Positions 1 to 11,577 of a stretch of DNA of 11,577 nucleotides are shown here, piece by piece (within the stretch, counting starts at the first letter, position 1; each line of letters begins with the position of its first letter). Source of the stretch: a virus (lineage: Duplodnaviria > Heunggongvirae > Uroviricota > Caudoviricetes); IMG/VR virus record IMGVR_UViG_3300018477_000015, positions 1-11,577 of that record; one strand, 5' to 3'. The translations under genes were made by a program, and so were the position numbers. The notes beneath the pieces were generated by a model. It had not been told where the DNA came from. It saw nothing but the letters and a program-made list of their open reading frames with translations, and searched no databases.

Positions 1-87
1 GTGCTGGATTACATTGACGCGGTGACGGCAACAGATACCAGCACCGCGCCTGATATTATTTGGCCTGCTTTCCTTGAGACTGATTAA
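1..87 (+). CDS. tail fibre assembly protein (Tfa), C-terminal fragment; 5' end lies outside the window
   Basis: Frame 1 from base 1 reads VLDYIDAVTATDTSTAPDIIWPAFLETD followed by TAA at 85-87. The DTSTAPDI(E/I)WP motif is, as I remember it, the conserved C-terminus of lambda-type Tfa chaperones. No start codon in the window, so it is absent from the ORF track. Confidence 0.55.
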   Translation: MLDYIDAVTATDTSTAPDIIWPAFLETD

Positions 88-316
88 CCTCAATCAATAT
101 TGGTTCCCCTTTCTCATTAATTGTTAGCTCCATGCCCTGAGGAATTTCTGTCATAGTAAAAAACCAGTTGTCCTCCGGTAATTCAATAGCCCCGGTCACA
201 TCATGAAGACCGGGGATTACTTCAGTCAAAGTAACTGGATTAAACAGGCGCACAATAAACCCTCCAGGAAAAAGCATTTGATGATGGTCTGCCGTCGTAC
301 ATCTGGCAGCGGGCAT
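56..316 (-). CDS. hypothetical protein; possibly a short alternate tail-fibre assembly gene of the invertible segment
   Basis: 86-aa ORF convergent with the plus-strand Tfa fragment (the two stops overlap across 56-87), an arrangement like U/U' in Mu-type G segments. It lacks the conserved Tfa C-terminal motif and overlaps the upstream ORF by 77 nt, so coding status is uncertain. Confidence 0.3.
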   Translation of the reverse strand: MPAARCTTADHHQMLFPGGFIVRLFNPVTLTEVIPGLHDVTGAIELPEDNWFFTMTEIPQGMELTINEKGEPILIEVNQSQGKQAK

Positions 317-623
317 AAAAACCGGTATTTGTTACCTGATCATCCACGATCATTGAAACGTGAACATTATTAGGTGTGCTCTCGTAATCTGTTCTTATTC
401 TTTCCGCGATACTGATAAAACGTGAAAGTTTAGGCAGTGCAATTGGGTAAACGACTTTAGCCAGTCCATTATCATTAGACCCACCCGTTCCAAAGACTTC
501 TATTGCACCATCTGACCAGCGAATCCATGCACCATTGGCATTAGCTCCTCGCTGAATGATATATCTGGCTTCTCCCAAACCAACGTTTATGAAAATGCAG
601 AAATAACGATCAAATGGCATCAT
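240..623 (-). CDS. side tail fibre C-terminal receptor-binding segment, alternate unfused copy reading inward through the inversion crossover site
   Basis: The C-terminal portion resembles lambda Stf-type fibre tips by eye (YPIALP, VTNTGF, terminal WRVYCAPV versus lambda IRVMAIGY from memory). The ORF runs through the 26-bp crossover site at 570-595 and has no convincing RBS, as expected for a variable fibre segment expressed only after inversion fuses it to the constant part. Confidence 0.5.
   Translation of the reverse strand: MMPFDRYFCIFINVGLGEARYIIQRGANANGAWIRWSDGAIEVFGTGGSNDNGLAKVVYPIALPKLSRFISIAERIRTDYESTPNNVHVSMIVDDQVTNTGFYARCQMYDGRPSSNAFSWRVYCAPV
570..595. other. Hin/Gin/Pin-type inversion crossover site (26 bp, two imperfect inverted 12-bp half-sites around a central AA)
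   Basis: TTCTCCCAAACC-AA-CGTTTATGAAAA. It matches my recollection of hixL (TTCTTGAAAACCAAGGTTTTTGATAA) at about 20 of 26 positions and lies 55 bp upstream of the invertase start, the usual position. Confidence 0.6.
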
Positions 624-649
624 TCCTGCTTTTGTCAGGGAGATCTACC

Positions 650-1204
650 ATGCTTATTGGCTATGTACGTGTGTCAACAAATGACCAGAACACAGATCTA
701 CAACGTAATGCGCTGAACTGTGCAGGATGCGAGCTTATTTTTGAAGACAAGATAAGCGGTACAAAGTCCGAAAGGCCGGGACTGAAAAAACTGCTCAGGA
801 CATTATCGGCAGGTGACACGCTGGTGGTCTGGAAACTGGACCGGCTGGGGCGCAGTATGCGGCATCTTGTCGTGCTGGTGGAGGAGTTGCGCGAACGAGG
901 CATCAACTTTCGTAGTCTGACTGATTCAATTGATACCAGCACACCGATGGGGCGTTTTTTCTTTCATGTGATGGGGGCCCTGGCTGAAATGGAACGAGAA
1001 CTGATTGTTGAACGAACAAAAGCTGGACTGGAAGCTGCTCGCGCACAGGGACGAATTGGTGGACGTCGTCCCAAACTTACACCAGAACAATGGGCGCAGG
1101 CCGGGCGACTAATTGCATCAGGAGTTCCTCGCCAGAAGGTGGCGATCATTTATGATGTTGGCGTATCGACTTTGTATAAGAAGTTTCCGGTCGGAGATAA
1201 ATGA
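650..1204 (+). CDS. pin: serine recombinase, DNA invertase (Pin/Hin/Gin/Cin family)
   Basis: Translation from ATG 650 begins MLIGYVRVSTNDQNTDLQRNAL... with the catalytic-serine motif and C-terminal HTH (GRIGGRRPKLT...STLYKK), near-identical in pattern to e14 Pin as I recall it. AGGGAGA sits 6 nt upstream of ATG 650. The upstream ATG at 614 would add a non-conserved extension. Confidence 0.92.
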   Translation: MLIGYVRVSTNDQNTDLQRNALNCAGCELIFEDKISGTKSERPGLKKLLRTLSAGDTLVVWKLDRLGRSMRHLVVLVEELRERGINFRSLTDSIDTSTPMGRFFFHVMGALAEMERELIVERTKAGLEAARAQGRIGGRRPKLTPEQWAQAGRLIASGVPRQKVAIIYDVGVSTLYKKFPVGDK

Positions 1205-1284
1205 AACCGTAGCACGTCGTATGCAAGAACGTGCCACGGCTGGCTGATAAGCTTGTAAAAATATTGAACAGGGAGTGGAGCATT

Positions 1285-1932
1285 CTATGAAGCTAATTTG
1301 TTTAATTTCATTTGTAGTGACTTTACTTCTTGGTCGATAATGTCGAATCCCTTATTGACAGCATCTCTTAGCTCTGCATCAATATTTTTTATCCCTTGAG
1401 CATAATCTACCATTACATTTATTTTTGCATCATGTAATCTCTTATACATGGTTTTATCTTTGTTATTGTCTGCCATGCCAATAAGGATTTTTTCATAATC
1501 CTCAATGAGTTTGTTGTTTCCTTTAAATGATTGTATTAATGAGCGTGAATATGTGTATATGTTAATTATTGAGTCTCTAGCAGAATCATTTAGTTTTGCA
1601 ATGACATTCGCATTTTTCTCATAGAATGTGAAATTATCATCCCCTACAGGGAATGTGAGAATCAACATTTGTCCCGGTTTTATATTATCAATGTGTGTTT
1701 TCATCCTTTTATTATATAAATTGATTAGGGTGAAAACTTCTCCCTTAACTCCTTTTAATACTGAAAGTTGTAATTCAAGGGATTCTCTTTCTGTCTCTAC
1801 TTTAGACAGCTTAGCTTGTTGGGTAACTCCTTTTAGGGTAAACCATCCGCCAATAAGAGTACCAACTAGAGCTGTGAGGGAGGAGGATAACCATCCAGGT
1901 ATGCTATTTAAAAGATTACTAAATTCACTCAT
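1285..1932 (-). CDS. hypothetical membrane-anchored protein (single N-terminal TM helix, then coiled-coil and globular region); AT-rich accessory gene
   Basis: 215-aa ORF. Residues about 10-32 (IPGWLSSSLTALVGTLIGGWFTL) are hydrophobic, followed by a charged heptad-like stretch. Low GC compared with flanking phage genes. No family recognised. Confidence 0.6.
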   Translation of the reverse strand: MSEFSNLLNSIPGWLSSSLTALVGTLIGGWFTLKGVTQQAKLSKVETERESLELQLSVLKGVKGEVFTLINLYNKRMKTHIDNIKPGQMLILTFPVGDDNFTFYEKNANVIAKLNDSARDSIINIYTYSRSLIQSFKGNNKLIEDYEKILIGMADNNKDKTMYKRLHDAKINVMVDYAQGIKNIDAELRDAVNKGFDIIDQEVKSLQMKLNKLAS

Positions 1933-1990
1933 TATAAGTACTCGCTAATATTGAACGATATATATATCAAATTATTATAAAACTCGTCAG

Positions 1991-2269
1991 CTACTGGAGA
2001 AGGCTACCTGAACTTCGATCTATTCCTGCATCCATATAGTTGATGGTCTTCTGGAGCTCTTCGATTAGGGCAACAGCTTTTGCTCGAGAAATGCATATTA
2101 GTTGATCCGGAAATTCTTGTAAGGGCCAGTTTGGTATACAGGCCATGTTATCAGTGAAGGATGCAGACAAGTAAACTTCATTGGTAACCAGAGAATAGCT
2201 TACCTCAAAATTGGTGAGTTCCGGCAAACTGCTAACGTTTGACTCTTTTCTGCGCATAATATTATCCAT
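1991..2269 (-). CDS. hypothetical small protein; start uncertain (ATG at 2269 giving about 92 aa, or upstream ATG at 2419 giving 142 aa)
   Basis: Open frame in the AT-rich island. The N-terminal 50 residues of the long form are Cys/Trp-rich and contain the C9T6 tract, so the shorter form is favoured. No clear SD for either start. Confidence 0.35.
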   Translation of the reverse strand: MDNIMRRKESNVSSLPELTNFEVSYSLVTNEVYLSASFTDNMACIPNWPLQEFPDQLICISRAKAVALIEELQKTINYMDAGIDRSSGSLLQ

Positions 2270-2346
2270 GACTGTAATTATGTACAGGTGATGGTCTTCA
2301 ATTTCGAAGAGGGAGTCAAGGGGGAGTCTCAAATGAACCGTTATAG

Positions 2347-2361
2347 AAAAAAGGGGGGGGG
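2347..2361. repeat. homopolymeric tract A6G9 (C9T6 on the minus strand)
   Basis: Direct reading: aaaaaa at 2347-2352, ggggggggg at 2353-2361. Confidence 0.9.
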
Positions 2362-2409
2362 ATCTTTGTGTTGCTGAACTTATGCAAAATTTTTTTGCAC
2401 CATAAATCC

Positions 2410-2670
2410 AACAACACATTCAATAACACATTGCTGTATCACTATGAAAATAAATGTGTTTTTATTTGATTTCACACATATCACAATTAATACAGCGTTT
2501 AGTAATTAGTAAAGACATTTCAATGAATTACCGTTAAATCATTTTAAAATCAGTAAGTTGTATCGAGTTTGTATGCTTTACTGTCATTAACTTACTGTAT
2601 GTTGATCCAGTGTATTTAACCTTGATAAACTCAGTCCAGCAACACAAAACCGCAACACATTGCATTTTGT
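2410..2670. promoter_or_regulatory. AT-rich integrase-upstream region with repeated short motifs; candidate attP arm-site or int regulatory region
   Basis: AACACATT at 2413-2420, 2425-2432 and 2654-2661, with an inverted copy at 2453-2460. A 9-bp perfect inverted repeat CAGTAAGTT/AACTTACTG at 2551-2559 and 2589-2597. Repeated TTGTAT and TTACTGT motifs. Confidence 0.3.
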
Positions 2671-2732
2671 CCCGTAGAAAAGACTTGTATGTGTGTGCTT
2701 GTTTTCTGCGCCTACGCAGATAAGGATTGAGA

Positions 2733-4130
2733 ATGCCGCGCACTGTAACACATAATCCGGATAGCCCCAATAATGACGATGTTTTAGCCGCATCTGAAAA
2801 ATGGGACGCCTGTAAACCCCCCTATACCAGCGCACACATGAAAATCTGTGTTGCTGCCGCCAAAATCATCCTCGCTGCTTCCGGCGTGGCTCGCCGTTCC
2901 AAATACGAAAAAGAGAACTATCTCCGTATCGATTTCAGCAAAGCCGGTAAGGTTACATTTTACGCCGAGTTTCCAAAAAAGATGGGCCTCAAAGGTAAAA
3001 AGCTCGGCGAGTGGCCGGAGCTCGCTATTCAGCTGGCGCGCGAAAAAGCGCTAGGTATGGCTGACGGTGGCCTGCGTGCAGAGTCCGTACATGCAGCGCT
3101 GGAAATGTACCGGGATGACCTCAAAGCCAAAGTCGCCCGGCAGAAGCTGAGCCCGGACAGTTTCACAACCTACGGGGTGCGTATCGACCGGATTAAAGCA
3201 ACGTTCGGCGAGCGCGAGGTGTTCAGCGACGTAACATACAATCGGCTGGTGGAAGTGCTGGACGAGTGGATCGCTACTCGCTCGAACAATAACGCCCTGG
3301 AGTTGTTTGCCGAGCTCCGTCGGTTCTGGAAGTTCTGCGCACCTACTCTTTGCAACGGCCGCAATGTTGCCGCCAGTCTGCCAGATGATTATGTTTCCTC
3401 CCGCGTACAGAAACCTACCCCCACACGGCTTTTTACCGATATTGAATCAATCGCCCGACTCTGGCTCAATGTTGCTGCCTGCACCTCTGTACACCAGAAG
3501 AATGCTGTTCGCTTCATGATCATCACTGGTGTTCGTCCGATTAATGTCCATAACCTGCGCTGGGACTACGTTCACGAGGAGGCTGGTGAAATTGTTTATC
3601 CGGAAGGGGTTATCGGCATGCGAGGGGCTATGAAAACACAAAAGGCTTTCCGCCTGCCGATAACCCCTGAGATCCGGCGGATTATCGACGAGCAGAAAGC
3701 CTGGCGTGATTCAGTTCCTGAGTGCAACAGGGATTATGTATTTTTGCAGCCACGTGATCCAATGCAGCCATTTTCAAAACGATCACTAGATAAGCTGGTG
3801 AAAACATACAGCCCGGACGGGGCTGTAAAAGGAATAAAACATGATGGGACTGTTAAAGGGAAAGACGGTGCATTTAATACGATGTGCCGTAAATTCCTTA
3901 AGAGCAATGTTATTGCCTTGATGAAGGAAAGAGGCTATTCCCGCTCAGACCGAAGGGAAATCAGCCTCCTTTGCCTTCACCACTCCAGCAAGTCAGATGA
4001 CCCGATGGCAGAACATTACGACTTTTCTGATGAGATTTTACAGGAAGAGATTGCGTTGAAGCGCGAAGCTTTCGAGGCTCACGAGCGGAGCATACTTGCG
4101 CAGGTGGCATTGCTACGGCGGCGAGGTTAA
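2733..4130 (+). CDS. int: tyrosine-type site-specific integrase (P4-like, with N-terminal arm-binding-type domain)
   Basis: 465 aa from ATG 2733, with AAGGA 6 nt upstream; the track's 2727 start is a TTG. The N-terminus (YLRIDFSKAGKVTFYAEF...LGEWPELAIQLAREKA) fits the P4-int arm-binding pattern. The catalytic-domain landmarks are TGVRPINV (Arg), HDGTVKG and CLHHSS...AEHY (His/Tyr region). Confidence 0.85.
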   Translation: MPRTVTHNPDSPNNDDVLAASEKWDACKPPYTSAHMKICVAAAKIILAASGVARRSKYEKENYLRIDFSKAGKVTFYAEFPKKMGLKGKKLGEWPELAIQLAREKALGMADGGLRAESVHAALEMYRDDLKAKVARQKLSPDSFTTYGVRIDRIKATFGEREVFSDVTYNRLVEVLDEWIATRSNNNALELFAELRRFWKFCAPTLCNGRNVAASLPDDYVSSRVQKPTPTRLFTDIESIARLWLNVAACTSVHQKNAVRFMIITGVRPINVHNLRWDYVHEEAGEIVYPEGVIGMRGAMKTQKAFRLPITPEIRRIIDEQKAWRDSVPECNRDYVFLQPRDPMQPFSKRSLDKLVKTYSPDGAVKGIKHDGTVKGKDGAFNTMCRKFLKSNVIALMKERGYSRSDRREISLLCLHHSSKSDDPMAEHYDFSDEILQEEIALKREAFEAHERSILAQVALLRRRG

Positions 4131-4327
4131 TACTGGCTGCGACATTTTTGAATAAAAGCGTCGATATTTCGGCGCTCATAACGAACTACTTTTGCACTGA
4201 AACGAATTGGTGCCAGGATAGCCCGATGACGATGCTTAATATTCCACTCACATAGCGTTTTCTGTGTAATACCTAACTTTTGGCATACTTCATCCGGGGT
4301 GAGTAAATCGTCGGGTTTCTCGCTCAT
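4127..4327 (-). CDS. AlpA/excisionase-family small HTH DNA-binding protein (candidate recombination directionality factor)
   Basis: 66 aa. LLTPDEVCQKLGITQKTLCEWNIK...ILAPIRFSAKVVRYERRNIDAFI fits the AlpA/Xis winged-helix pattern. Its ATG overlaps the helicase stop (ATGA at 4324-4327) and its stop overlaps the int stop convergently. Confidence 0.65.
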   Translation of the reverse strand: MSEKPDDLLTPDEVCQKLGITQKTLCEWNIKHRHRAILAPIRFSAKVVRYERRNIDAFIQKCRSQY

Positions 4328-5718
4328 GCTATACCTCTCTTTTTCATGGCATCGAGCAGGATGTCCTGCACTGTTCGTTTTGAGTTGCGCCGCTCCATCA
4401 CCATTTCATCCATAGTGTCGGCAGCAATAATGTGGTGAATAAATACCGGACGATTGTGTCCGGCCTGTATCTGCCTGGTGGGGCCGATACGTTCAATAAT
4501 TTGCTGATATTGCTCCAGGTCCCACCAGTGTGAGAAAAATACCAGTATATTTCCGCCGTCCTGCATGTTCAGGCCGTGGCCCGCGCTGGCTGGGTGTGCA
4601 AAGAGAACAGGAATCTTTCCGGAATTCCAGTCGCGCAGTGTCTGTGGATCCTGGTCGAGGTGACGACCGCGAGGGAATGCTTTAAGCAAGCGTTCAAGAT
4701 CGTGTTTCCAGTGATAAGCAACCAGCACAGGTGCGCCAGCTGCTTCGGTCAGTATGCTGTCCAGCGCCTGTAGTTTGGTGTCATGCAGTTCTGACCAACT
4801 TCCGGTGTCATCTGTGTATACTGCGCCGCTGGCGATTTGCAGACACTTCAGTGTCTTTGCCGCGGCGTTCGGTGCTTCGATGCCTTCGCCATTCAGCTCG
4901 AGGAACATTTCCTTTTCCATTTCACGATACTGCTGACGGGCCTTCGGCGGCATATCCACGCGGATTACGTTATGGATGGGGTCTTTGATATCGAACCAGT
5001 CGGCCGCATCCAGCGAGAGGGTTACATCGGCTAACGCTCGCTGTATTTCACCCTGTGAGTGAGCAAAAGGCTCCAGTTTGGTCCAGCTCTGCCCCGGAAA
5101 CTGTATCGAGTTGAACCAGCGTGAGGTAAACGCGCCGTAAGTGCGCCCGAGACGTTGCCCCTGGTCCACAAACCACGATTGTCCCCACAAATCTACCAGG
5201 CCGTTCGGTGCTGGCGTACCGGTGAGATTTATCCAGCGCCGGACATACTTATGCGCCACTTTGCCCAGCGCCGCCGCGCGCTTACCACCACCGCGCAGCC
5301 GGAAGGATTTTAGCCGGGTGCTTTCATCTGGAATGACAGTACCGAACGGCCATCGTTCTCCCAATTCTTCAACCAGCCAGACAAGGTTATCGTAGTTGAT
5401 GGTGAACACGCTTGCGTTGCTGTTCGTCAGCGCCATAGAGCGCGCTTTGGCATTACCAATAATTGGCTGCACCTCGATATTGCGCAAATGTCCCCACTTC
5501 AGTGCTTCATCCGGCCATGTGCTGGCAGCCACGCGCAGCGGCGCGAGGACCAGTGCGGGGCATGTTTCTGCCCCTGCCATAAAGAGATCTTCCAGCGCAG
5601 TGAGCGTTGCCACGGTTTTACCCATTCCCATCCCCGCCCAGATGTTGCCGCGCAGGGTTTCGGTTTCGTGGTTGATAATGAGATCTTGGTAGGGGCGAGG
5701 TATATATTTTGGGGGCAT
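4324..5718 (-). CDS. SNF2-family ATP-dependent helicase (phage replication or recombination module)
   Basis: 464 aa with RPYQ, Walker A AGMGMGKT, DExx box IPDESTRL, motif III LTGTPAPN and a C-terminal GLNMQ...ERIGPTRQIQAG block resembling SNF2 motifs V/VI. AGGAG sits 9 nt upstream of ATG 5718. Confidence 0.85.
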   Translation of the reverse strand: MPPKYIPRPYQDLIINHETETLRGNIWAGMGMGKTVATLTALEDLFMAGAETCPALVLAPLRVAASTWPDEALKWGHLRNIEVQPIIGNAKARSMALTNSNASVFTINYDNLVWLVEELGERWPFGTVIPDESTRLKSFRLRGGGKRAAALGKVAHKYVRRWINLTGTPAPNGLVDLWGQSWFVDQGQRLGRTYGAFTSRWFNSIQFPGQSWTKLEPFAHSQGEIQRALADVTLSLDAADWFDIKDPIHNVIRVDMPPKARQQYREMEKEMFLELNGEGIEAPNAAAKTLKCLQIASGAVYTDDTGSWSELHDTKLQALDSILTEAAGAPVLVAYHWKHDLERLLKAFPRGRHLDQDPQTLRDWNSGKIPVLFAHPASAGHGLNMQDGGNILVFFSHWWDLEQYQQIIERIGPTRQIQAGHNRPVFIHHIIAADTMDEMVMERRNSKRTVQDILLDAMKKRGIA

Positions 5719-5732
5719 ATAATATGGCTCCT

Positions 5733-5768
5733 AAACAACAAAAGGCCAATTTAGGCCTTTTGTTGTTT
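5733..5768. other. perfect 15-bp inverted repeat with 6-nt loop (possible attenuator, weak terminator or processing hairpin)
   Basis: AAACAACAAAAGGCC-AATTTA-GGCCTTTTGTTGTTT. It lies between the stop of the 305-aa gene (5781) and the helicase RBS, and is U-rich on either strand. Confidence 0.5.
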
Positions 5769-5780
5769 TAAAAATGTTAT

Positions 5781-6698
5781 TTATAATAGTGCTGTTACTA
5801 TTGCATCTTTAAAAATATTTTCTTCTTCATTTATTAAAGGTGATGACAGATGAATAATTACTTCTTTTCCTGTCAATACTATTTGCTCGACTTGAAATCC
5901 TGCGTTGTGTAGTCTTTGGCGTAACTTTTCTAGTGCTGATTTTGATATACTAAATCCTTCACTCCTTATAGTATAACTGGCAACTCCATTTTTAATAATA
6001 TCTACAGAGTTGTCAATTTCCTGCTGCGAGTAATTTTTCGGTGAGTCGAAAAATCTGGATTTTGTCGTTGCTGTTGCCCTAAGAGATATCAATAATGATT
6101 TGATATCTTTAATCTCAGATGCCAGATACTCAGTTTCTGATACTTCTTTCTGGTCTAGTTGTGCAACTTTGAAAGTGCCAAAATGTTTGAGGAATGTTGT
6201 GTATTCAGGATCAGTTACTGACTTTAAATATGTTTCTTTTATCTTGCTCGCAAGTCTTTCTTTGAATAAATTGATTGATTGGTATCTTAAATCCGAAGGG
6301 TACTCTAAATGTTCAATTGATGAAATGTCAAAGCTATAAGGAGTGCGCTCGTCCTTAATAATTACGGTCGGTTTGTCAAATGCGAGACGCATTCCTAATT
6401 CAAACATTACATTAGCGTTTCGAGCACTTATATCGCAAACAACTATGGGGTTTTCATAAAGATTTTGAACAATTCGTTTTTGTATTACTGCAACATCATC
6501 ATCTGAACTTACCAAATTTGCCTTGAATCCGGCATCATTTGATGCTTCACAAATAATGTCATGAACATTTCTCCAATGTCCAGTGGGATAACCTTCTATG
6601 TCCGCAATTGGCATAATAATGCCGCATATATGAGGTGGCATATTTTTGTTGTCTTTTACATCATCTTGGTTTATTTCTTTCGTTTGTTGCTTAGCCAT
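5781..6698 (-). CDS. hypothetical protein with N-terminal TIR-like / nucleoside 2-deoxyribosyltransferase-like (Rossmannoid) domain and uncharacterised C-terminal domain; AT-rich insertion
   Basis: 305 aa. N-terminal region has ICGIIMPIA, then DDDVAVIQKRIVQNLYENPIVVCDISARNANVMFELGMRLAFDKPTVIIKDE and EYPSDLRY. The FE(L)G acidic motif after a buried strand is typical of TIR-like (PF10137-type) and NDT-like folds as I recall them. GC content is clearly lower than in the flanking helicase and VRR-NUC genes. Confidence 0.5.
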   Translation of the reverse strand: MAKQQTKEINQDDVKDNKNMPPHICGIIMPIADIEGYPTGHWRNVHDIICEASNDAGFKANLVSSDDDVAVIQKRIVQNLYENPIVVCDISARNANVMFELGMRLAFDKPTVIIKDERTPYSFDISSIEHLEYPSDLRYQSINLFKERLASKIKETYLKSVTDPEYTTFLKHFGTFKVAQLDQKEVSETEYLASEIKDIKSLLISLRATATTKSRFFDSPKNYSQQEIDNSVDIIKNGVASYTIRSEGFSISKSALEKLRQRLHNAGFQVEQIVLTGKEVIIHLSSPLINEEENIFKDAIVTALL

Positions 6699-6713
6699 AG
6701 CTTACACAGACTC

Positions 6714-6998
6714 CTATTGTAATTTTTTGCCTAATATACATGAAAGCTCCTTACTATCCAGTACTACCACGGTAAAGCCCAGTTTTCGCAGACGTTCATG
6801 CTCGCGCAACTGATCAGGTCGTGGTGGTTTGCCTGGTGCTTTGCATTCGACAAAGACGATGCGACCGCCGGGTAGCAGAACAATGCGATCTGGTACCGAG
6901 CGGAGACCGGGAGATACGAACTTAAAAGCAACCCCGCCAGCCTTTTTTACTTCAGCGACGAGGTGCTTTTCGATTAGGTTTTCACGTTCATAGGCCAT
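6714..6998 (-). CDS. VRR-NUC domain nuclease (PD-(D/E)xK family)
   Basis: 94 aa. GLRSVPDRIVLLPGGRIVFVECKAPGKPPRPDQ contains the D...E-x-K signature in the size and arrangement typical of VRR-NUC, a usual partner of phage SNF2 helicases. Confidence 0.8.
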   Translation of the reverse strand: MAYERENLIEKHLVAEVKKAGGVAFKFVSPGLRSVPDRIVLLPGGRIVFVECKAPGKPPRPDQLREHERLRKLGFTVVVLDSKELSCILGKKLQ

Positions 6999-7192
6999 TA
7001 GCTTTCGCCTTCCTGCTTTTTGCGTTTCTTCATGCAGATAGCGCAGTTCTCAGGATGGTCATGCCATTCGTCAATCCTGATACCTGTGAACATCCATTTT
7101 CCGCATAGTGATATGGCTTCCCCCGAATTAAAGAAATGTGCTTTTTTCGACAGGGCGGGGAACCCCCAACCTTTATTATCGATATTAGACAT
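6998..7192 (-). CDS. small putative zinc-binding protein (64 aa), translationally coupled to the VRR-NUC gene
   Basis: Strong SD (AAGGAGG, 6 nt before ATG 7192). Its stop overlaps the VRR-NUC start (TAATG at 6996-7000). Contains a C-x13-H-x-H-x4-C-x2-C motif (SLCGKW...EWHDHPENCAIC). Confidence 0.55.
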   Translation of the reverse strand: MSNIDNKGWGFPALSKKAHFFNSGEAISLCGKWMFTGIRIDEWHDHPENCAICMKKRKKQEGES

Positions 7193-7370
7193 CGTCCACC
7201 TCCTTACGCTTTTCGCGCATGTTCTGCATCAGACAAAAATCAAACCGACGTTCGCTTTGGCCCAGACCTGCATCGCCCGGTCGTACCCGCTGGACTGTTC
7301 AAGGCGCAAAGCCTCCCGCGCAGTCCGGTAATAAAGCGGACTGTCCCGGTATTTAAATGACATAGGGTTT

Positions 7371-7403
7371 TTATTCCCAAATAAAAAACCCCGCAATGCA
7401 GGG
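7371..7403 (-). terminator. rho-independent terminator downstream of the 253-aa gene (minus-strand sense)
   Basis: Minus-strand RNA forms CCCUGC-AUU-GCGGGG (6-bp stem with one G-U pair) followed by UUUUUUAUUU. It lies about 24 nt after the stop at 7428. Confidence 0.5.
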
Positions 7404-7427
7404 TTGTAATCAACAATAAGGGGGTAA

Positions 7428-8189
7428 TTACGAGGAAGCGTTAGCTATTTGAGCTTGTGTAAATTCGAAACCAGAATTTTGTAACCGTTGCACTAGACGA
7501 GGAACTGTTTCACGTACATGGTCGTTGAAATTCAGATACAAAATCCCGTTAGCATCAGAAGGCTGTTCTAGGTGCTGTTTCTGAAGGATTGCTACATTGC
7601 TGCGCCCTAAGGACGAAAGAAGCATACCCATCTCGAGTACAACGTTCTGTCTTGCGCGGGGTTGGATTTCTGCTTCACCGGCGCGCTTTGAGTATCCCAT
7701 ATCATCAGGTGTCAAAAGAACAATCCCGAAACGGGTAGCAGTTTGTCCTTGCCCAATTTCACGTTCAAGCTCTTCAATAATGGTGAGTCCAGTCCCTCCC
7801 GTATTCTGCAAAATGAAATGGTCTGGTAATCCAAGTTTATGAAGGATTAGCTCAAGTTGTTCCTTTGCAGTATGGTCATGGCCGTGAACAATGAATATCT
7901 TTTTGGGAAGCTCAGATGGCTGTTCTACGGCTAGTGGTGTTGCCGTGGGGGGCGTTCCTAAATGGGACATTATTGCAGTTTCAACATTGGGACGTTCTTG
8001 AGGGTTACCTTGAAACTGAATGGTCCGGGTGGTGTAAAGGTTAACAATTACGCCATTCGTTAAACGATAGCAGTCATAAGTCTCACGCTGTTCGTGGGAA
8101 AAATTGGTGAACCCACACTCCCTCAAAAAGTCAGGAAAAGATTCTCTCGGGTATGGATAGGTGATCGGCATTTCAGTTAGTTCCTGCAT
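7428..8189 (-). CDS. TIR-like domain protein (C-terminal TIR-like/NDT-like Rossmannoid domain, uncharacterised N-terminal domain of about 95 aa)
   Basis: 253 aa. C-terminal half has KIFIVHGHD, then FGIVLLTPDDMG...PRARQNVVLEMGMLLSSLGRSNVAILQK and QPSDANGILYLNF, the same motif order as the 305-aa protein and matching my recollection of the PF10137-type TIR-like family. AGGA about 10 nt upstream of ATG 8189. Followed by its own terminator. Confidence 0.55.
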   Translation of the reverse strand: MQELTEMPITYPYPRESFPDFLRECGFTNFSHEQRETYDCYRLTNGVIVNLYTTRTIQFQGNPQERPNVETAIMSHLGTPPTATPLAVEQPSELPKKIFIVHGHDHTAKEQLELILHKLGLPDHFILQNTGGTGLTIIEELEREIGQGQTATRFGIVLLTPDDMGYSKRAGEAEIQPRARQNVVLEMGMLLSSLGRSNVAILQKQHLEQPSDANGILYLNFNDHVRETVPRLVQRLQNSGFEFTQAQIANASS

Positions 8190-8253
8190 AAGTATTGTTC
8201 CTTTAATTTACTCGAATTCAGCATGTCGCCATAGCTCGATAAGGTGAGTTATA

Positions 8254-10350
8254 TCAATCTTTTTTGTAGTGGTACGCCTCAAAGCCGCCAGCGTTCAGCG
8301 GAATATCGGGTGCCCATTCGGGGTTAGTGGAGAGAAGCGCGGAAAGCGCTTTATCGTTGAAATCTTCTGTGTCTGGTGCTTCGGTGATCACCTCGTCGTG
8401 TACCGTTAGCACAATGCTGTAACCGGCACCCTCGATCAGCGGCATGTTTCTGGCCAGAACGTCGCGGGCGGCCGCCTGGGTGACGTTCTCCACCAGCTTT
8501 CCGCCGTAGGTTTTGAGTCGTTGCCATTTACGCGAATAAGAGTTAACACCCATGTAGGTGATATTCCCTTGTTCGATAACCGGAGACGGGTAGCATACAG
8601 CGCGTCCGGATGGTAGCTGTATGCGCAGCCACGCGCCATCACGTCGGATTTTAAGATAGCCGCAATACAATGTTTTTTGCGGTATGGCGATTGCTGTGCG
8701 GACAGTGCGCTCCAGCTCGTACCAGAAATCGCAGGTCGCCGGGTGCGCCCTGCGCCACAGGCGCTTGAGCGAGTCACATGCGATGAATACACGCTCGGAA
8801 AGGCCAAAGGTCGACTTACGTTTAACCGATTCGTCGTACCAGCTTTTCGCCTCGCGGATAACATCGCGGGGAATGTTTGGCAGTGCGGCGTTCGCCAGCT
8901 CGTCGAGATCGAGACCGTAAACCAGAGCAAAAGTGATGAAAGCCGATACACCACCTCCATAACCCAGACCGAGTTCCATGACTTTACCGATCTGACGCAT
9001 GTGTTTATCAACATCATCTGGTGCAATATCGAAAGCTTTTGCATACGCCAGTTTATATAAGTCCGGACCCGTTCCAGCGTCATACTCTCTGAATGCATTC
9101 AGTTTCCATTCTTCTCCCGCCAGCCATGCCAGCATACGGCCTTCAATGTTTGACAAGTCACTTACCACCAGTTTTTTGCCTGTTGGCGCGATAATGCAGC
9201 CACGTAACGCTGAACTGGTTAGTTCCATGATATTGTCAAACAGCAGGTCTGCACATCCGGCTTTCAGTGCTTCGATGCCTTCGTCTATTTGTTCCTGTTT
9301 TAGTGAAGGGCGGGGAAGGTTCTGGGGCTGGAATAGCCGTCCGGCCCAACGACCGGTACGTGACGCCCCGCAGAACTGTAGCGTACCGCGTAAGCGCCCG
9401 TCGTGGCTTACGCCTTTCATCAGTGCCTTGTATTTACTGGTGCTGGTAGTACTGGCTTGCAGGCGGATAGCCAGCAGTTCTTTCACGGCAGATGATAAAT
9501 CGGGGTCGGCCATACGACGTTCCAGGGTACTGCGTTGCATGTCTGGTAGCTCCACACCGTAGGATTCAACGATGTGCTTAATCAACGCGTCCCGTTGTGT
9601 GGCTGCCTGCACTTCGCCATCAGTCATTTCCTGTGTACGCTTTGCCAGGCGCTTTTGCTCCTGGTCTACCGCTTCGATCGCAGCGCGCGCGAGTTGCATG
9701 TCCATGCAGACGCCCCGGTCGTTGATCTGCTGATCACGATGCCAGAGCGCCAGCTCTGTCCCCTGATAATTCCACTTCGGCAGACGTTTATAGACTTCGC
9801 GCATTGCTTCGATATCCAGTCCGGCGTAAGCAACAAAGCGCCGCCATTCTTCCGGATGGGTTTTACTGGTGGCCCGACGCAGTTTGCTGTTTTTCGGATG
9901 TGGCTTACAGAACAGCTGGATCAGCGCTTTACCTTCTTTGTCCTTCGCTTTGTCTTGCGGGACGCCTAGTACTTCGCAGAGTTCCCCCAGAGACCCCGGG
10001 AGACCGTGCGCCAGCGCCTGCACCATCGTGTCGCGCCAACGTTCGACTGGCGGTGCCAGTCGCGGCATTGCATAACGCAGAACGGTGCGGTCGAAGTGAG
10101 AGTTATGGAAATAAAGCAGGGTTTCAGGGTCTGCGATTGCTTCGTATAAGCCGTGTGGAATACCACCACCGGCAGTGATATCCCACACGTTTACTGGCCC
10201 GTCGTTGATAGCCCATGCGAAAAGCATCACTTCAACGCCTTCGGCATACGCATGGGTACCGTTCGTAATAGGGATTTCGCAATAGGTTTCCAGGTCGCCC
10301 CAGAGAATACTTTGATGTTGTTTATTTGAGGGGACTATATTATTTTTCAT
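8254..10350 (-). CDS. family A DNA polymerase with N-terminal 3'-5' exonuclease domain (phage-type PolA)
   Basis: 698 aa. Exo motif LWGDLETY, polymerase motif [21 protein letters not shown], motif [17 protein letters not shown], motif C LTVHDEV. Confidence 0.9.
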
Positions 10351-10384
10351 ATGGGCAAACTAGCTAATAAAGTTGAGGAAAAAA

Positions 10385-10588
10385 ATGTCTGAATCTAAGT
10401 TCAAACCTGGAGACCGCGTACAACATCTTTCTGGTGGGCCTGTTCTTGTGGTTGTTAGCACAGGATATATTCCTGCAACAGCTTTTAATGGCGACTTCAT
10501 TCGCGTAACTTGTGAATTTTGGGATGAATCTAAAAAAGCTTTCGTAAAACAGGATTTTGTTGAAACTTCTCTTGAAGATTACGAATAA
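10385..10588 (+). CDS. DUF2158 (YodC-like) small protein
   Basis: About 67 aa from ATG 10385, with GAGGA 5 nt upstream; the track's 10373 start is a TTG. KPGDRVQHLSGGPVLVV...CEFWDESKKAFVKQDFVETSL fits the GD.V.L.SGGP...C.WFD...K..F pattern of the DUF2158 family. It lies opposite in orientation to the surrounding replication genes. Confidence 0.65.
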   Translation: MSESKFKPGDRVQHLSGGPVLVVVSTGYIPATAFNGDFIRVTCEFWDESKKAFVKQDFVETSLEDYE

Positions 10589-10604
10589 CTCATAACACAA
10601 TCCT

Positions 10605-10628
10605 CAAAGCGCCCCTAAGGGCGCTTTG
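10605..10628. terminator. bidirectional hairpin terminator between convergent genes
   Basis: Perfect 10-bp stem CAAAGCGCCC / GGGCGCTTTG with CTAA loop, followed by GCGTTT on the plus strand. It sits 17 nt after the DUF2158 stop and 4 nt after the DUF2815 stop. Confidence 0.55.
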
Positions 10629-10632
10629 GCGT

Positions 10633-11181
10633 TTAAATCAGTGCTTCAGCATCAGCACCTTCGCTGATATCGTCGAAATCGTCAGCGCTTGCCACTCCGC
10701 CGCCAGCGAATGCATCGCCGTCTCGCAGGAACTGGACTCCGCCGAGTGAGGCATTAATGCGTTTACCGAAATTATTGTCCTGTGCCCAGATATCGATAAC
10801 GGCGTTTACATAGCACCCTGCATAGGGACGTCCATCAGCCTGAATTAGTGGCGAACGATCGCGATCAAGAACAGCTGGGCGCGCTTTGTTAGCAGCATTC
10901 AGGAAGAAATTACCGGGGAAGCCTTCATACTCTGCTTTTTCATCACCATCATGCAGGCACAGATTGAGTTTTTTCTCCAGTTGGTTATAAATGGGCTCCC
11001 ACTTCTCTCCCCATTTTTCCTTCGCTACCTGCTTCATAGCTTTACGGATTTCTTCCAGTTGTGGGTGTTTGGGAGACATTAAAAATACTGCGGAGAAACG
11101 CGGATCGCCTTCGCCGTTTACAGTTTTAGCTTCAAACAGAGACGGGAAGGCCAGACGAACATTGTTCAGCTTCAGTTTCAT
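10633..11181 (-). CDS. DUF2815-family phage protein (ssDNA-binding-like), with acidic C-terminal tail
   Basis: 182 aa beginning MKLKLNNVRLAF, the N-terminal signature I associate with DUF2815 proteins found next to phage family A polymerases. AAGGAAA SD 8 nt upstream. C-terminus is DDFDDISEGADAEALI. Confidence 0.65.
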   Translation of the reverse strand: MKLKLNNVRLAFPSLFEAKTVNGEGDPRFSAVFLMSPKHPQLEEIRKAMKQVAKEKWGEKWEPIYNQLEKKLNLCLHDGDEKAEYEGFPGNFFLNAANKARPAVLDRDRSPLIQADGRPYAGCYVNAVIDIWAQDNNFGKRINASLGGVQFLRDGDAFAGGGVASADDFDDISEGADAEALI

Positions 11182-11196
11182 GGGTATTTCCTTAAA

Positions 11197-11577
11197 TCAG
11201 ATGAGGTCTGCGGTTAGCGTATCGTCGGATACGTCGTCGAAATCATTTACAGGGTTGATATTGAGTGCGGGGCGTGGGTCTGACTCGGGAACGACGGTTG
11301 GTTTACCATCAGCTCGTGTTATCAGTGCCTCGACTTTTGACCAACGGCGCGGACTGGCCTTTTTGATAAGTTTTTCGGCTTTTGTGGGACTAATAAGTTT
11401 AAAGTCGAATACTTCTTCAGTTTTGTACCTGAACTGGTCCTTCAGAAGTGCGCGAGCTGCCTCTTCATCACTCCAGGCCCGGTTACCTTGTTTTCCTGTT
11501 ACCAGTTTAAACCCCGGTACCGGATGTCCGGCATTGAGTTCATTGTGAACCCGGTCCCGTACTGCCTTTAGCCAGGA
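11197..11577 (-). CDS. phage replication-module protein, C-terminal 126-aa fragment (5' end outside window); possibly the DUF2800-type nuclease that usually precedes DUF2815
   Basis: Minus-strand frame is open from the window edge to TGA at 11197-11199 and ends ...NDFDDVSDDTLTADLI. The stop lies 15 nt upstream of the DUF2815 start. It is not in the ORF track because there is no Met in the window. The family assignment is a guess from gene order. Confidence 0.45.
   Translation of the reverse strand, partial: SWLKAVRDRVHNELNAGHPVPGFKLVTGKQGNRAWSDEEAARALLKDQFRYKTEEVFDFKLISPTKAEKLIKKASPRRWSKVEALITRADGKPTVVPESDPRPALNINPVNDFDDVSDDTLTADLI

Follow-up and report, generated by a model that had tools for sequence, protein, structure and literature searches.

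In the G segment of phage Mu (Gin; Sv/U, S'v/U') and the C segment of P1 (Cin), a serine invertase adjoins the segment, the crossover site lies within the fibre gene, which has a constant N-terminus and alternative C-termini, and an assembly gene of its own comes after each tip. Inversion of the e14 P segment of E. coli K-12 is likewise known experimentally (PMC4272514, PMC12529663). The Tfa proteins bind the fibre through their N-domain and trimerise through their C-domain, and TfaMu has been reported to remain on the mature fibre, where it contributes to receptor recognition (PMC9608196).

We examined a stretch of 11,577 nucleotides from a virus of the Caudoviricetes (positions 1 to 11,577 of IMG/VR record IMGVR_UViG_3300018477_000015; hereafter the window). 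Positions 1-1204 are very probably the right-hand, pin-proximal end of a ~1.6-kb Pin-type invertible tail-fibre segment in a temperate E. coli myophage. The switch itself is of the ordinary e14/Mu type and is textbook biology; what is new is a member of the cassette only. The previously unannotated part of the segment carries a spare fibre tip paired with a conserved 65-residue protein, which we refer to as mini-Tfa and which, by homology, looks like the fibre-binding half of a normal Tfa. The adjacent serine invertase, the crossover site within a gene and the pairing of tips with assembly genes are shared with Mu G and P1 C, whereas the fibre and chaperone sequences differ and one of the two chaperones appears reduced to its N-terminal domain.

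The closest likeness is to the e14 P segment of K-12 (stfP/ycfK-tfaP / tfaE-stfE / pinE). The layout is the same, with two convergent tip-Tfa cassettes whose 3' ends overlap; PinE of the window is 97% identical to K-12 PinE, and window and K-12 share the right crossover site and the pin-proximal leader. ECOR29, a close relative of the window, additionally shares the e14-type baseplate, ymfQ and the constant fibre part. However, the window's second cassette shows no DNA homology to the K-12 stfP tip and tfaP, and the two tips are 22% identical; the homology that we had expected here was rejected by both DNA alignment and protein comparison. TfaP is a protein of 137 aa with a Caudo_TAP match, whereas its counterpart in the window has 65 aa and no such match. 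The element that hosts the cassette is a ~43-kb phage of the vB_EcoM-606R2 type and not a defective e14. All of the features proposed in an earlier sequence-only reading of this DNA were recovered, each at its expected place or within a base of it (Table 1).

Table 1. Features at the pin-proximal end of the invertible segment (window positions).
Feature	Positions	Strand	Remarks
TfaE-type gene, 3' end	1-87	+	Cut by the window edge; stop TAA at 85-87; Caudo_TAP match
Mini-Tfa gene, 65 aa	56-253	-	GTG at 253, stop at 56-58; same ORF called by PGAP in relatives
Variable fibre tip, currently unfused, 109 codons plus stop	240-569	-	phrog_2557; predicted gp53-like C-terminal fold
Pin crossover site, 26 bp, bounding the segment on the right	570-595		Unique in the window; inverted pair in relatives
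Pin-proximal read-through leader (MMPFDRYFC...)	596-623	-	Supplies the ATG to the unfused tip; almost identical to the K-12 'stfE' leader
pinE, serine DNA invertase, 184 aa	650-1204	+	Resolvase and HTH_7; PGAP start at 650 in relatives

At the left edge, frame 1 of the plus strand translates as VLDYIDAVTATDTSTAPDIIWPAFLETD followed by a stop, which is a canonical Tfa C-terminus and matches the 201-aa tfaE of ECOR29 and EH2252 at its end (Caudo_TAP E=3.5e-30). A Tfa gene ending at position 87 had been read correctly, but the description of it as a fragment was not, since the window edge simply cuts through a whole gene. This TfaE-type gene would supply the chaperone for the StfE-type tip that is presumably expressed at present, and its 3' end is overlapped by the mini-Tfa gene over 32 nt.

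The 26-bp crossover site (TTCTCCCAAACCAACGTTTATGAAAA) was found in one copy in the window, with 0 expected (200 shuffles). It is built of the half-site TTCTCCCAAACC, a central AA and the half-site CGTTTATGAAAA, and its minus strand encodes NVGLGE in frame with the tip; a crossover site next to pin, with a minus-strand tip reading out of it, was thereby confirmed. The invertase is intact (Resolvase, E=1.8e-51; HTH_7, E=3.8e-14; domain search) and retains the catalytic-serine motif YVRVSTNDQ. Given its 97% identity to PinE, the Fis-bound recombinational enhancer in the 5' part of the invertase gene is presumably conserved. A second, inverted copy of the site had been anticipated further left. 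We found it within the fibre gene of both nearest relatives, although the left edge of the window comes before that position is reached. ECOR29 (L001) has inverted core arms at 4981-5000 and 6569-6588, and EH2252 (L002) has inverted sites at 4959-4984 and 6570-6595, the left one lying inside the fibre gene in each case. The left site of EH2252 was missed by the default repeat finder and recovered by a degenerate pattern search. A left site in the window's own fibre gene would be expected to read ...AAAACCTTGGTTT[A/G]GGAGAA. The left sites of the two relatives share the core and the AA/TT central dinucleotide of the right site, and left and right sites both encode (E)N(L/V)GLGE in frame, the left one at ENLGLGE of the relatives' fibre gene.

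The segment occurs in both orientations in sequenced E. coli, in homologous copies carried by genomes other than that of the window. Simulated inversion produced an uninterrupted ORF of 206 aa, and the inverted junction was present at full length in five genomes (VTB97584v, AL.H8 and three others; 93-97% identity). Two assemblies of one strain, carrying the same IS3-marked P2-like prophage, differed by a precise inversion (flanks 100% identical; 2.8-kb core 99.97% identical) in which the half-sites were swapped at the TT/AA centre, and the site at the right-hand breakpoint was identical in sequence to that at 570-595 of the window. Fused proteins of 210 aa (many) and unfused forms of 126-127 aa both exist. 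The in-frame site and the swap of tips by inversion bear out the proposed switching cassette like Mu G or e14 P, and nothing that we found contradicts it. It is improbable that the segment is frozen in this particular genome, with its left site lost or mutated and the cassette a fossil beyond expression. Such a state would fit the absence of the left site from the window and the persistence of an LGLGE relic in some relatives without any invertase, but pinE is intact, with a product that shares 97% of its residues with the active enzyme of K-12. The right site has no defect, a left site persists in both of the closest relatives, and the tip and mini-Tfa ORFs are uninterrupted.

In the expression scheme that we infer from this anatomy, the constant 5' part of the fibre gene would lie to the left of the window and have at its end a 26-bp crossover site that codes for ENLGLGE. 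Within the invertible segment there would be two convergent cassettes, each made of a variable fibre tip and then its own assembly factor. As the segment now lies, the late operon would express the StfE-type tip, fused to the constant part, together with the 201-aa TfaE, and the cassette of the gp53-like tip and mini-Tfa would stay unfused, facing away from the constant part. PinE would exchange strands at the central AA/TT of both sites, so that the segment flips and an in-frame 206-aa fibre bearing the gp53-like tip would result. Translation of mini-Tfa would then be coupled to that of the tip by the 14-nt overlap and by a Shine-Dalgarno (SD) sequence within the tip's last codons. The predicted outcome is a switch of host range.

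We next turn to the tip itself. The unfused minus-strand ORF at 240-623 encodes 127 aa, and its product matched phrog_2557 with E=3e-21. The Pfam family Gp53-like_C (PF21882) scored 17.0 bits on this ORF (E=0.0088), below the gathering cut-off of 24.9, and tip homologues in P2-like H proteins reached 19.8 bits against the same family. A sequence-profile search of the PDB with the tip and mini-Tfa families returned nothing meaningful, and NCBIfam gave no match for either protein. An AF2 model of the tip, with a mean pLDDT of only 72, had R1/R2 pyocin fibres and AP22 gp53 as its top Foldseek matches (6ct8, 6cxb, 4mtm, 6cl5; probability 1.0, TM 0.56-0.59), and its top match in BFVD was a gp53-like C-terminal domain (E=8e-8, TM 0.71). 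Tip residues ~20-127 match the gp53-like domains of AP22 gp53 (4MTM) and R1/R2 pyocin (6CXB/6CT8/6CL5) in predicted fold but are only 17-19% identical to them in sequence. Tips of this type were found attached at N(L/V)GLGE to fibre N-termini of four different kinds, and fusions of the tip occur in proteins of 210 aa and 463 aa. The homology of the 127-aa product to tail-fibre tips is upheld by the phrog_2557 match, the fibre folds retrieved by Foldseek and these natural fusions; the tip has, as modelled, a gp53/R-pyocin fibre fold and is predicted to bind the receptor.

For the short gene downstream of the tip, the sequence-only reading had given 86 aa and a 77-nt overlap because the longest ORF was taken. 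That ORF (minus strand, 56-316) does exist. However, MRLFNP is the start of every one of more than 120 protein clusters (57-66 aa). It corresponds to the GTG at 253, and the gene is therefore 65 aa long, with 14 nt in common with the tip ORF. An SD sequence, GGAGGG, stands at 260-265, six nt upstream of this start; the SD is conserved, as GGAGG ahead of MRLFNP, and other genera have ATG at the start. On these grounds the 86-aa reading was rejected.

Mini-Tfa is under purifying selection, with dN/dS of 0.10-0.37, mostly 0.1-0.2, at saturated dS, and its length holds steady at 57-66 aa across Escherichia, Enterobacter, Salmonella, Citrobacter, Hafnia, Xenorhabdus and Erwinia. At every locus examined, in e14-like, vB_EcoM-606R2-like and P2-like elements, it lies directly downstream of the tip with the 14-nt overlap. 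Where P2-like prophages have no invertase, the sole gene between the fibre gene H and the sheath gene is mini-Tfa, in a slot that we take, from the P2 gene order, to be the position of the chaperone gene G. The tip and the 65-aa protein occur as a pair in 115 of 5,426 complete E. coli genomes (~2%), and also in other Enterobacterales. The suggestion that the short ORF might be degenerate was rejected on the basis of its dN/dS and its conserved length and SD, and the alternative offered alongside it, an unusual short chaperone, is the option we favour. It is scarcely credible, and already largely refuted, that the gene has no function and is what decay has left of a full-length tfa', cut short at the junction of the two cassettes. 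Of the 145 positions in the phrog_5400 profile it matches just 1-66, there are longer relatives (123-154 aa), and the 3' end does overlap that of tfaE, all as a remnant would have it. Yet a remnant would not keep dN/dS at 0.1-0.2 over pairs with saturated synonymous change, nor its length through seven genera, nor its SD and start, and the protein remains just as small (58-62 aa) at loci with no convergent tfa gene beside it.

Mini-Tfa matched phrog_5400 with E=9e-25 and, by hhalign, the N-domain of Cronobacter phage JK004 gene_1 (98% probability, E=1.8e-13), a protein that itself scores E=1.4e-20 for Caudo_TAP. Three further proteins (P0244, P0253, P0262) combine the same N-domain with Caudo_TAP, and in other phages this type of N-domain is fused to Caudo_TAP or Phage_tail_APC C-termini. 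Mini-Tfa stops where the C-terminal region of JK004 gene_1 starts, without the helical region (...W..YR..L.RVD...P.I.WP). Judged from these alignments, it most likely corresponds to the N-terminal beta domain by which a Tfa binds the fibre, without the conserved C-terminal helical trimerisation domain. It resembles the Tfa/Caudo_TAP proteins (lambda Tfa, P2 gpG, TfaMu 5YVQ) in its place immediately downstream of a fibre gene, in its predicted translational coupling, and in sharing an N-domain with Caudo_TAP-positive proteins; it differs from them in having no Caudo_TAP match of its own, no C-terminal helical region and no fold match to 5YVQ. A search of mini-Tfa against Pfam, including Caudo_TAP (PF02413), gave no match at E<=1. 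Compared at the profile level, classical Tfa proteins matched weakly (22% probability with S164 Tfa), and there was no match to K-12 TfaP. A Foldseek search of the PDB with the AF2 model of mini-Tfa (pLDDT 79, pTM 0.39) returned insignificant, WW-domain-sized matches only and not TfaMu 5YVQ; at this pTM the model is too small and uncertain for the fold search to count either for or against the homology.

The homology and the constant pairing make it most likely that mini-Tfa assembles or caps the gp53-like tip as its cognate factor. Since it has no counterpart of the domain thought to drive trimerisation, we infer chaperone activity from its position and homology only, and our literature search found no description of a short or gp53-associated chaperone. 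The missing helical domain also leaves room for mini-Tfa being a real partner of the tip and not a folding chaperone, that is, a permanent distal cap or specificity-shaping adhesin subunit, or an accessory unrelated to assembly. We consider this rather unlikely. Its strict co-inheritance with the tip and the retention of TfaMu on the mature fibre, where it aids receptor recognition, would suit a cap. Against this, the same N-domain is attached elsewhere to bona fide Caudo_TAP and Phage_tail_APC C-termini, and mini-Tfa fills what is presumably the gpG chaperone slot, where there is no other chaperone candidate; the cap and chaperone roles are, moreover, not mutually exclusive.

A stronger form of the chaperone reading, which we put forward tentatively as a real possibility short of a favoured one, is that mini-Tfa is a self-sufficient minimal assembly factor. 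The C-terminal trimerisation helix would then be dispensable for gp53-like tips, and the N-domain would be a mobile module that occurs with Caudo_TAP, Phage_tail_APC, DUF4376 or no partner at all. The main gain from this work is one of annotation: a pair of 'hypothetical proteins' can now be read as a putative receptor-binding module and the minimal partner that may assemble it. Should mini-Tfa really suffice for assembly, no smaller Tfa-type factor would be known; it would also make it easier to engineer phage and tailocin fibres with gp53-like tips, and would inform the division of labour between the two Tfa domains.

As a second, less likely layer of this proposal, the unfused tip might serve in a defence like that of StfE2. 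The 127-aa ORF would be expressed from its own ATG, and the free gp53-like lectin would mask receptors and block superinfecting phages. StfE2 of K-12 e14 has been reported to block T2 adsorption, an effect that relied on plasmid over-production (PMC12529663). The architecture is the same in both, a pin-proximal leader and a gp53-like tip joined by inversion into a free ORF of ~127 aa, and the leader of the window's ORF is nearly identical to the K-12 'stfE' leader (MMPFDRYFCIFINVGLGE vs MMPFACYFFIFINVGLGE). The window offers a second natural case of the chimeric pin-proximal ORF recently claimed for phage defence in K-12. We nevertheless regard expression of the free tip as quite unlikely here. 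The window tip differs in sequence from its K-12 counterpart (only 22% identity to the StfP tip), the AGGA standing 0-3 nt from the ATGs is poorly spaced, and PADLOC gave no match for the tip or mini-Tfa. A promoter consensus scan found no promoter-like site upstream of the tip on the minus strand, in agreement with the claim that this tip is promoterless, for which the scan is the sole support. The amino acids of the leader are variable among silent copies, free to vary where the tip is conserved.

Promoter and terminator scans around the segment as a whole gave nothing useful; a terminator-like match on the minus strand at 179-163, at chance level, falls within the mini-Tfa gene. The leader at 596-623 also falls within the upstream region of pinE, on the opposite strand.

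The sequence-only reading placed an invertible tail-fibre segment at the left end of the window, and the features it described in the first 1.2 kb are all there: both minus-strand ORFs, the 26-bp site and the invertase, which is 97% identical to K-12 PinE. The site occurs once in the window and did not occur in 200 shuffles. The plus-strand translation ending at position 87 is a C-terminus typical of Tfa proteins, and in the nearest relatives this stretch corresponds to the end of a complete 201-aa tfaE (Caudo_TAP E=3.5e-30). A Tfa gene does end there, as had been read, but it is an entire gene clipped by the window edge and no fragment.

Features of the window, with the basis of each call
Feature	Position	Strand	Basis or remark
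tfaE, 3' end	1-87	+	frame 1 translation VLDYIDAVTATDTSTAPDIIWPAFLETD, then stop
Tail-fibre/pin end	1-2470		
ORF, 86 aa	56-316	-	mechanical ORF list
Mini-Tfa gene (putative)	56-253	-	
ORF, 127 aa	240-623	-	mechanical ORF list
Tip part of 127-aa ORF	243-569	-	residues ~19 onward only
GGAGGG	260-265		
Crossover site, 26 bp, TTCTCCCAAACCAACGTTTATGAAAA	570-595		unique in the window
pinE invertase, intact	PGAP start 650		Resolvase and HTH_7 domains
Slot downstream of pin	1285-2419	-	variable cargo site
Matched yfhL-proximal prophage end	from ~2471		
Integrase	2727-4130		
Hypothetical, 305 aa	5781-6698	-	weak PADLOC TIR-effector match (E=1e-6); no Pfam match
TIR-domain protein, 253 aa	7428-8189	-	PADLOC PDC-S35 (E=1e-108); Pfam CAP12-PCTIR_TIR

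Relatives were sought by megablast against 5,426 complete E. coli genomes, and the layout was shared by ECOR29 (97% identity over 1-1246) and EH2252 (92% over 1-1300), both annotated in the order fibre gene, tfaE, convergent 65-aa hypothetical, 126/127-aa hypothetical and pinE. The ECOR29 prophage carries e14-type baseplate genes and ymfQ; that of EH2252 is a different myophage. The second inverted copy expected to the left lies within the fibre gene of both (ECOR29 core arms, L001 4981-5000 and 6569-6588, 95% complementary; EH2252 sites, L002 4959-4984 and 6570-6595), the EH2252 left site having escaped both the repeat search at default settings and a search allowing 3 mismatches. As 26-mers, the left site reads TTCTCCCAAACC-AA-GGTTTTCGAGAG and the right site TTCTCCCAAACC-AA-CGTTTATGAAAA, with one half-site and the central dinucleotide in common. 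In the fibre frame the left site is translated as ...ALENLGLGE, and in that of the 127-aa ORF the right site as ...INVGLGE; inverting ECOR29 in silico gave an unbroken 206-aa protein consisting of the constant N-terminus, LGLGE and ARYIIQRG...CAPV.

The first 18 residues of the 127-aa ORF come from translation through the site and the 28 bases that separate it from pin; this leader, nearly identical to the K-12 'stfE' start, is freely variable among copies. The remainder matches the phrog_2557 C-terminus (E=3e-21) and tail-fibre PHROGs and, weakly, Pfam Gp53-like_C (17 bits, below the cut-off of 24.9). Its AF2 model is all-beta (pLDDT 72); the four best PDB neighbours are R2-/R1-pyocin fibre C-termini and AP22 gp53 (prob 1.0, TM 0.56-0.59), and among viral proteins the closest is one with a gp53-like C-terminal domain (E=8e-8, TM 0.71). 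On these profile and model matches it is a gp53-like, receptor-binding tip of a tail fibre, in agreement with the tail-fibre tip first proposed. The K-12 StfP tip, which scores strongly as Gp53-like_C (E=8e-16), belongs to another sequence family and is only 22% identical to the window tip.

A simulated-junction query returned five genomes with a full-length match (93-97% identity) and further genomes with the same tip on other fibre N-termini. VTB97584v and AL.H8, with the order ymfQ, 210-aa fused fibre, 65-aa gene, convergent tfaE, unfused StfE-type tip and pinE, show the window's arrangement in mirror image. Both 210-aa fused and 126-127-aa unfused forms are numerous in the protein database, the tip being joined to at least four unrelated N-termini, invariably at N(L/V)GLGE. 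The cleanest evidence for inversion, bearing out the two orientations envisaged earlier, comes from two 'DH5alpha'-labelled assemblies: they share a prophage, its IS3 insertion and 100% identical flanks, yet the 2.8-kb core, 99.97% identical, is inverted, with half-sites swapped precisely at the central TT/AA and a right site identical to that of the window. Because both assemblies are 4.83 Mb and carry a P2-like prophage, the label is probably wrong for both. In this P2-like prophage IS3 (L006 4342-5800, L007 4336-5794) sits after codon 9 of the short minus-strand gene, and the segment inverted precisely despite it; E. coli W and KO11FL have the same tip sequence (96.7% identity). Experiments have documented that Pin enzymes invert the e14 P segment of K-12 (PMC4272514, PMC12529663). 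The left site of this genome falls outside the window, so the window's own copy is inferred, rather than shown, to be likewise invertible.

A Pin-driven host-range switch would best explain this arrangement, a system of known kind with a previously unannotated cassette; the earlier interpretation is upheld with corrected gene boundaries. By analogy with Mu G, P1 C and e14 P, late transcription would come in from the constant fibre part, so that the tip joined to it would be made along with the assembly gene behind that tip, and the other cassette would point away; a promoter scan found no consensus promoter for the away-facing cassette. As the window stands, the StfE-type tip and TfaE would be on, and the gp53-like tip and its short gene off; chaperone activity and the host-range effect are suggested by the same analogy. 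Alternatively, the unfused 127-aa ORF could be expressed, not silent, because it is built like StfE2, a K-12 protein that arises by inversion and reportedly blocks T2 adsorption (PMC12529663). However, this defence role is opposed by the lack of an upstream promoter match, poor SD spacing, the variable leader and the lack of a defence-family match.

Within the host-range switch, the short minus-strand gene encodes 65 aa (mini-Tfa), not 86. PGAP annotates 65 aa in relatives, every aligned member of the >120 protein clusters found starts MRLFNP, and a conserved GGAGGG lies six bases upstream of the start, within the tip's FSWRV codons; the 86-aa reading was ruled out on these grounds. The start is GTG at 253 (ATG in other genera), which reduces the overlap with the tip ORF from the 77 nt first read to 14 nt. 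Purifying selection on the gene is strong (Nei-Gojobori dN/dS 0.10-0.37, mostly 0.1-0.2, with synonymous sites at or near saturation). It follows this tip family in every case found, including phage S164 (P2-like, invertase present), a Xenorhabdus prophage, and Enterobacteriaceae and Erwinia P2-like prophages lacking an invertase. The last have the order V-W-J-I-H, short gene, sheath, and their H proteins end in homologous tips (35-61% identity); no other chaperone candidate lies between H and sheath, a slot that in the P2 gene order belongs to gene G, which encodes the chaperone for fibre assembly. Of the two options first offered for the short ORF, a degenerate remnant is essentially excluded by the dN/dS values and by its retention in invertase-less prophages, and an unusual short chaperone, in the form of a Tfa homologue, is favoured. 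The pair of tip and mini-Tfa is present in 115 of the 5,426 complete E. coli genomes.

Mini-Tfa has no match of its own in Pfam, NCBIfam or PADLOC and matches positions 1-66 of the 145-position phrog_5400 profile. Longer relatives tie it to Tfa proteins: gene_1 of Cronobacter phage JK004 (128 aa), located behind a Gp53-like_C protein, has the same domain over the first 56 residues (hhalign 98%, E=1.8e-13) and then runs into a C-terminus that is typical Caudo_TAP (E=1.4e-20). A profile search of 1.84 billion representatives found 41 proteins in two length classes, stand-alone (53-70 aa) and with a C-terminal extension (103-192 aa). The extension is Caudo_TAP in P0244, P0253 and P0262, Phage_tail_APC in P0252 (weaker in P0251 and P0247), DUF4376 in P0267, and other, apparently helical tails in the remainder. 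Tfa-type chaperones are modular, the fibre being bound by a variable N-terminal beta domain and trimerisation being the task of a conserved helical domain at the C-terminus (PMC9608196); mini-Tfa corresponds to the N-terminal module only. This N-domain-only homologue is the sole element of some novelty, and it may, less probably, act as a permanent cap or adhesin, not as a chaperone. Its AF2 model is all-beta (pLDDT 79, pTM 0.39), with no significant PDB neighbour, a result uninformative for so small a protein.

The rest of the window is a 99.6% match to the integrase and replication module of vB_EcoM-606R2/611R5-type phages and of prophages adjoining yfhL, and the EH2252 pin end adjoins yfhH. 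From this pairing, the window seems to run across the attP junction in a circular or excised genome of that type; the whole window is in no complete E. coli genome of the collection. The sister phage vB_EcoM-683R1, on the same backbone, has a different silent cassette at this place (L017 2556-3166; a short tail-fibre fragment and a 146-aa GpG-type Tfa), so cassettes have been exchanged among members of one phage lineage; the annotated invertase gene of vB_EcoM-683R1 spans only 315 bases, versus 555 in the window. At the cargo slot, K-12 has mcrA, VTB97584v a GIY-YIG LEM-3-like gene, and ECOR29 and AL.H8 other hypotheticals. In the window it holds a 215-aa ORF (hydrophobic N-terminal segment by eye, no family match) and a 142-aa ORF (phrog_17793), for which a defence or moron function is possible. 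The replication module also contains the 305-aa hypothetical and, between a VRR-NUC gene and a family-A DNA polymerase, the TIR-domain gene, PDC-S35 being a PADLOC candidate single-gene defence system.
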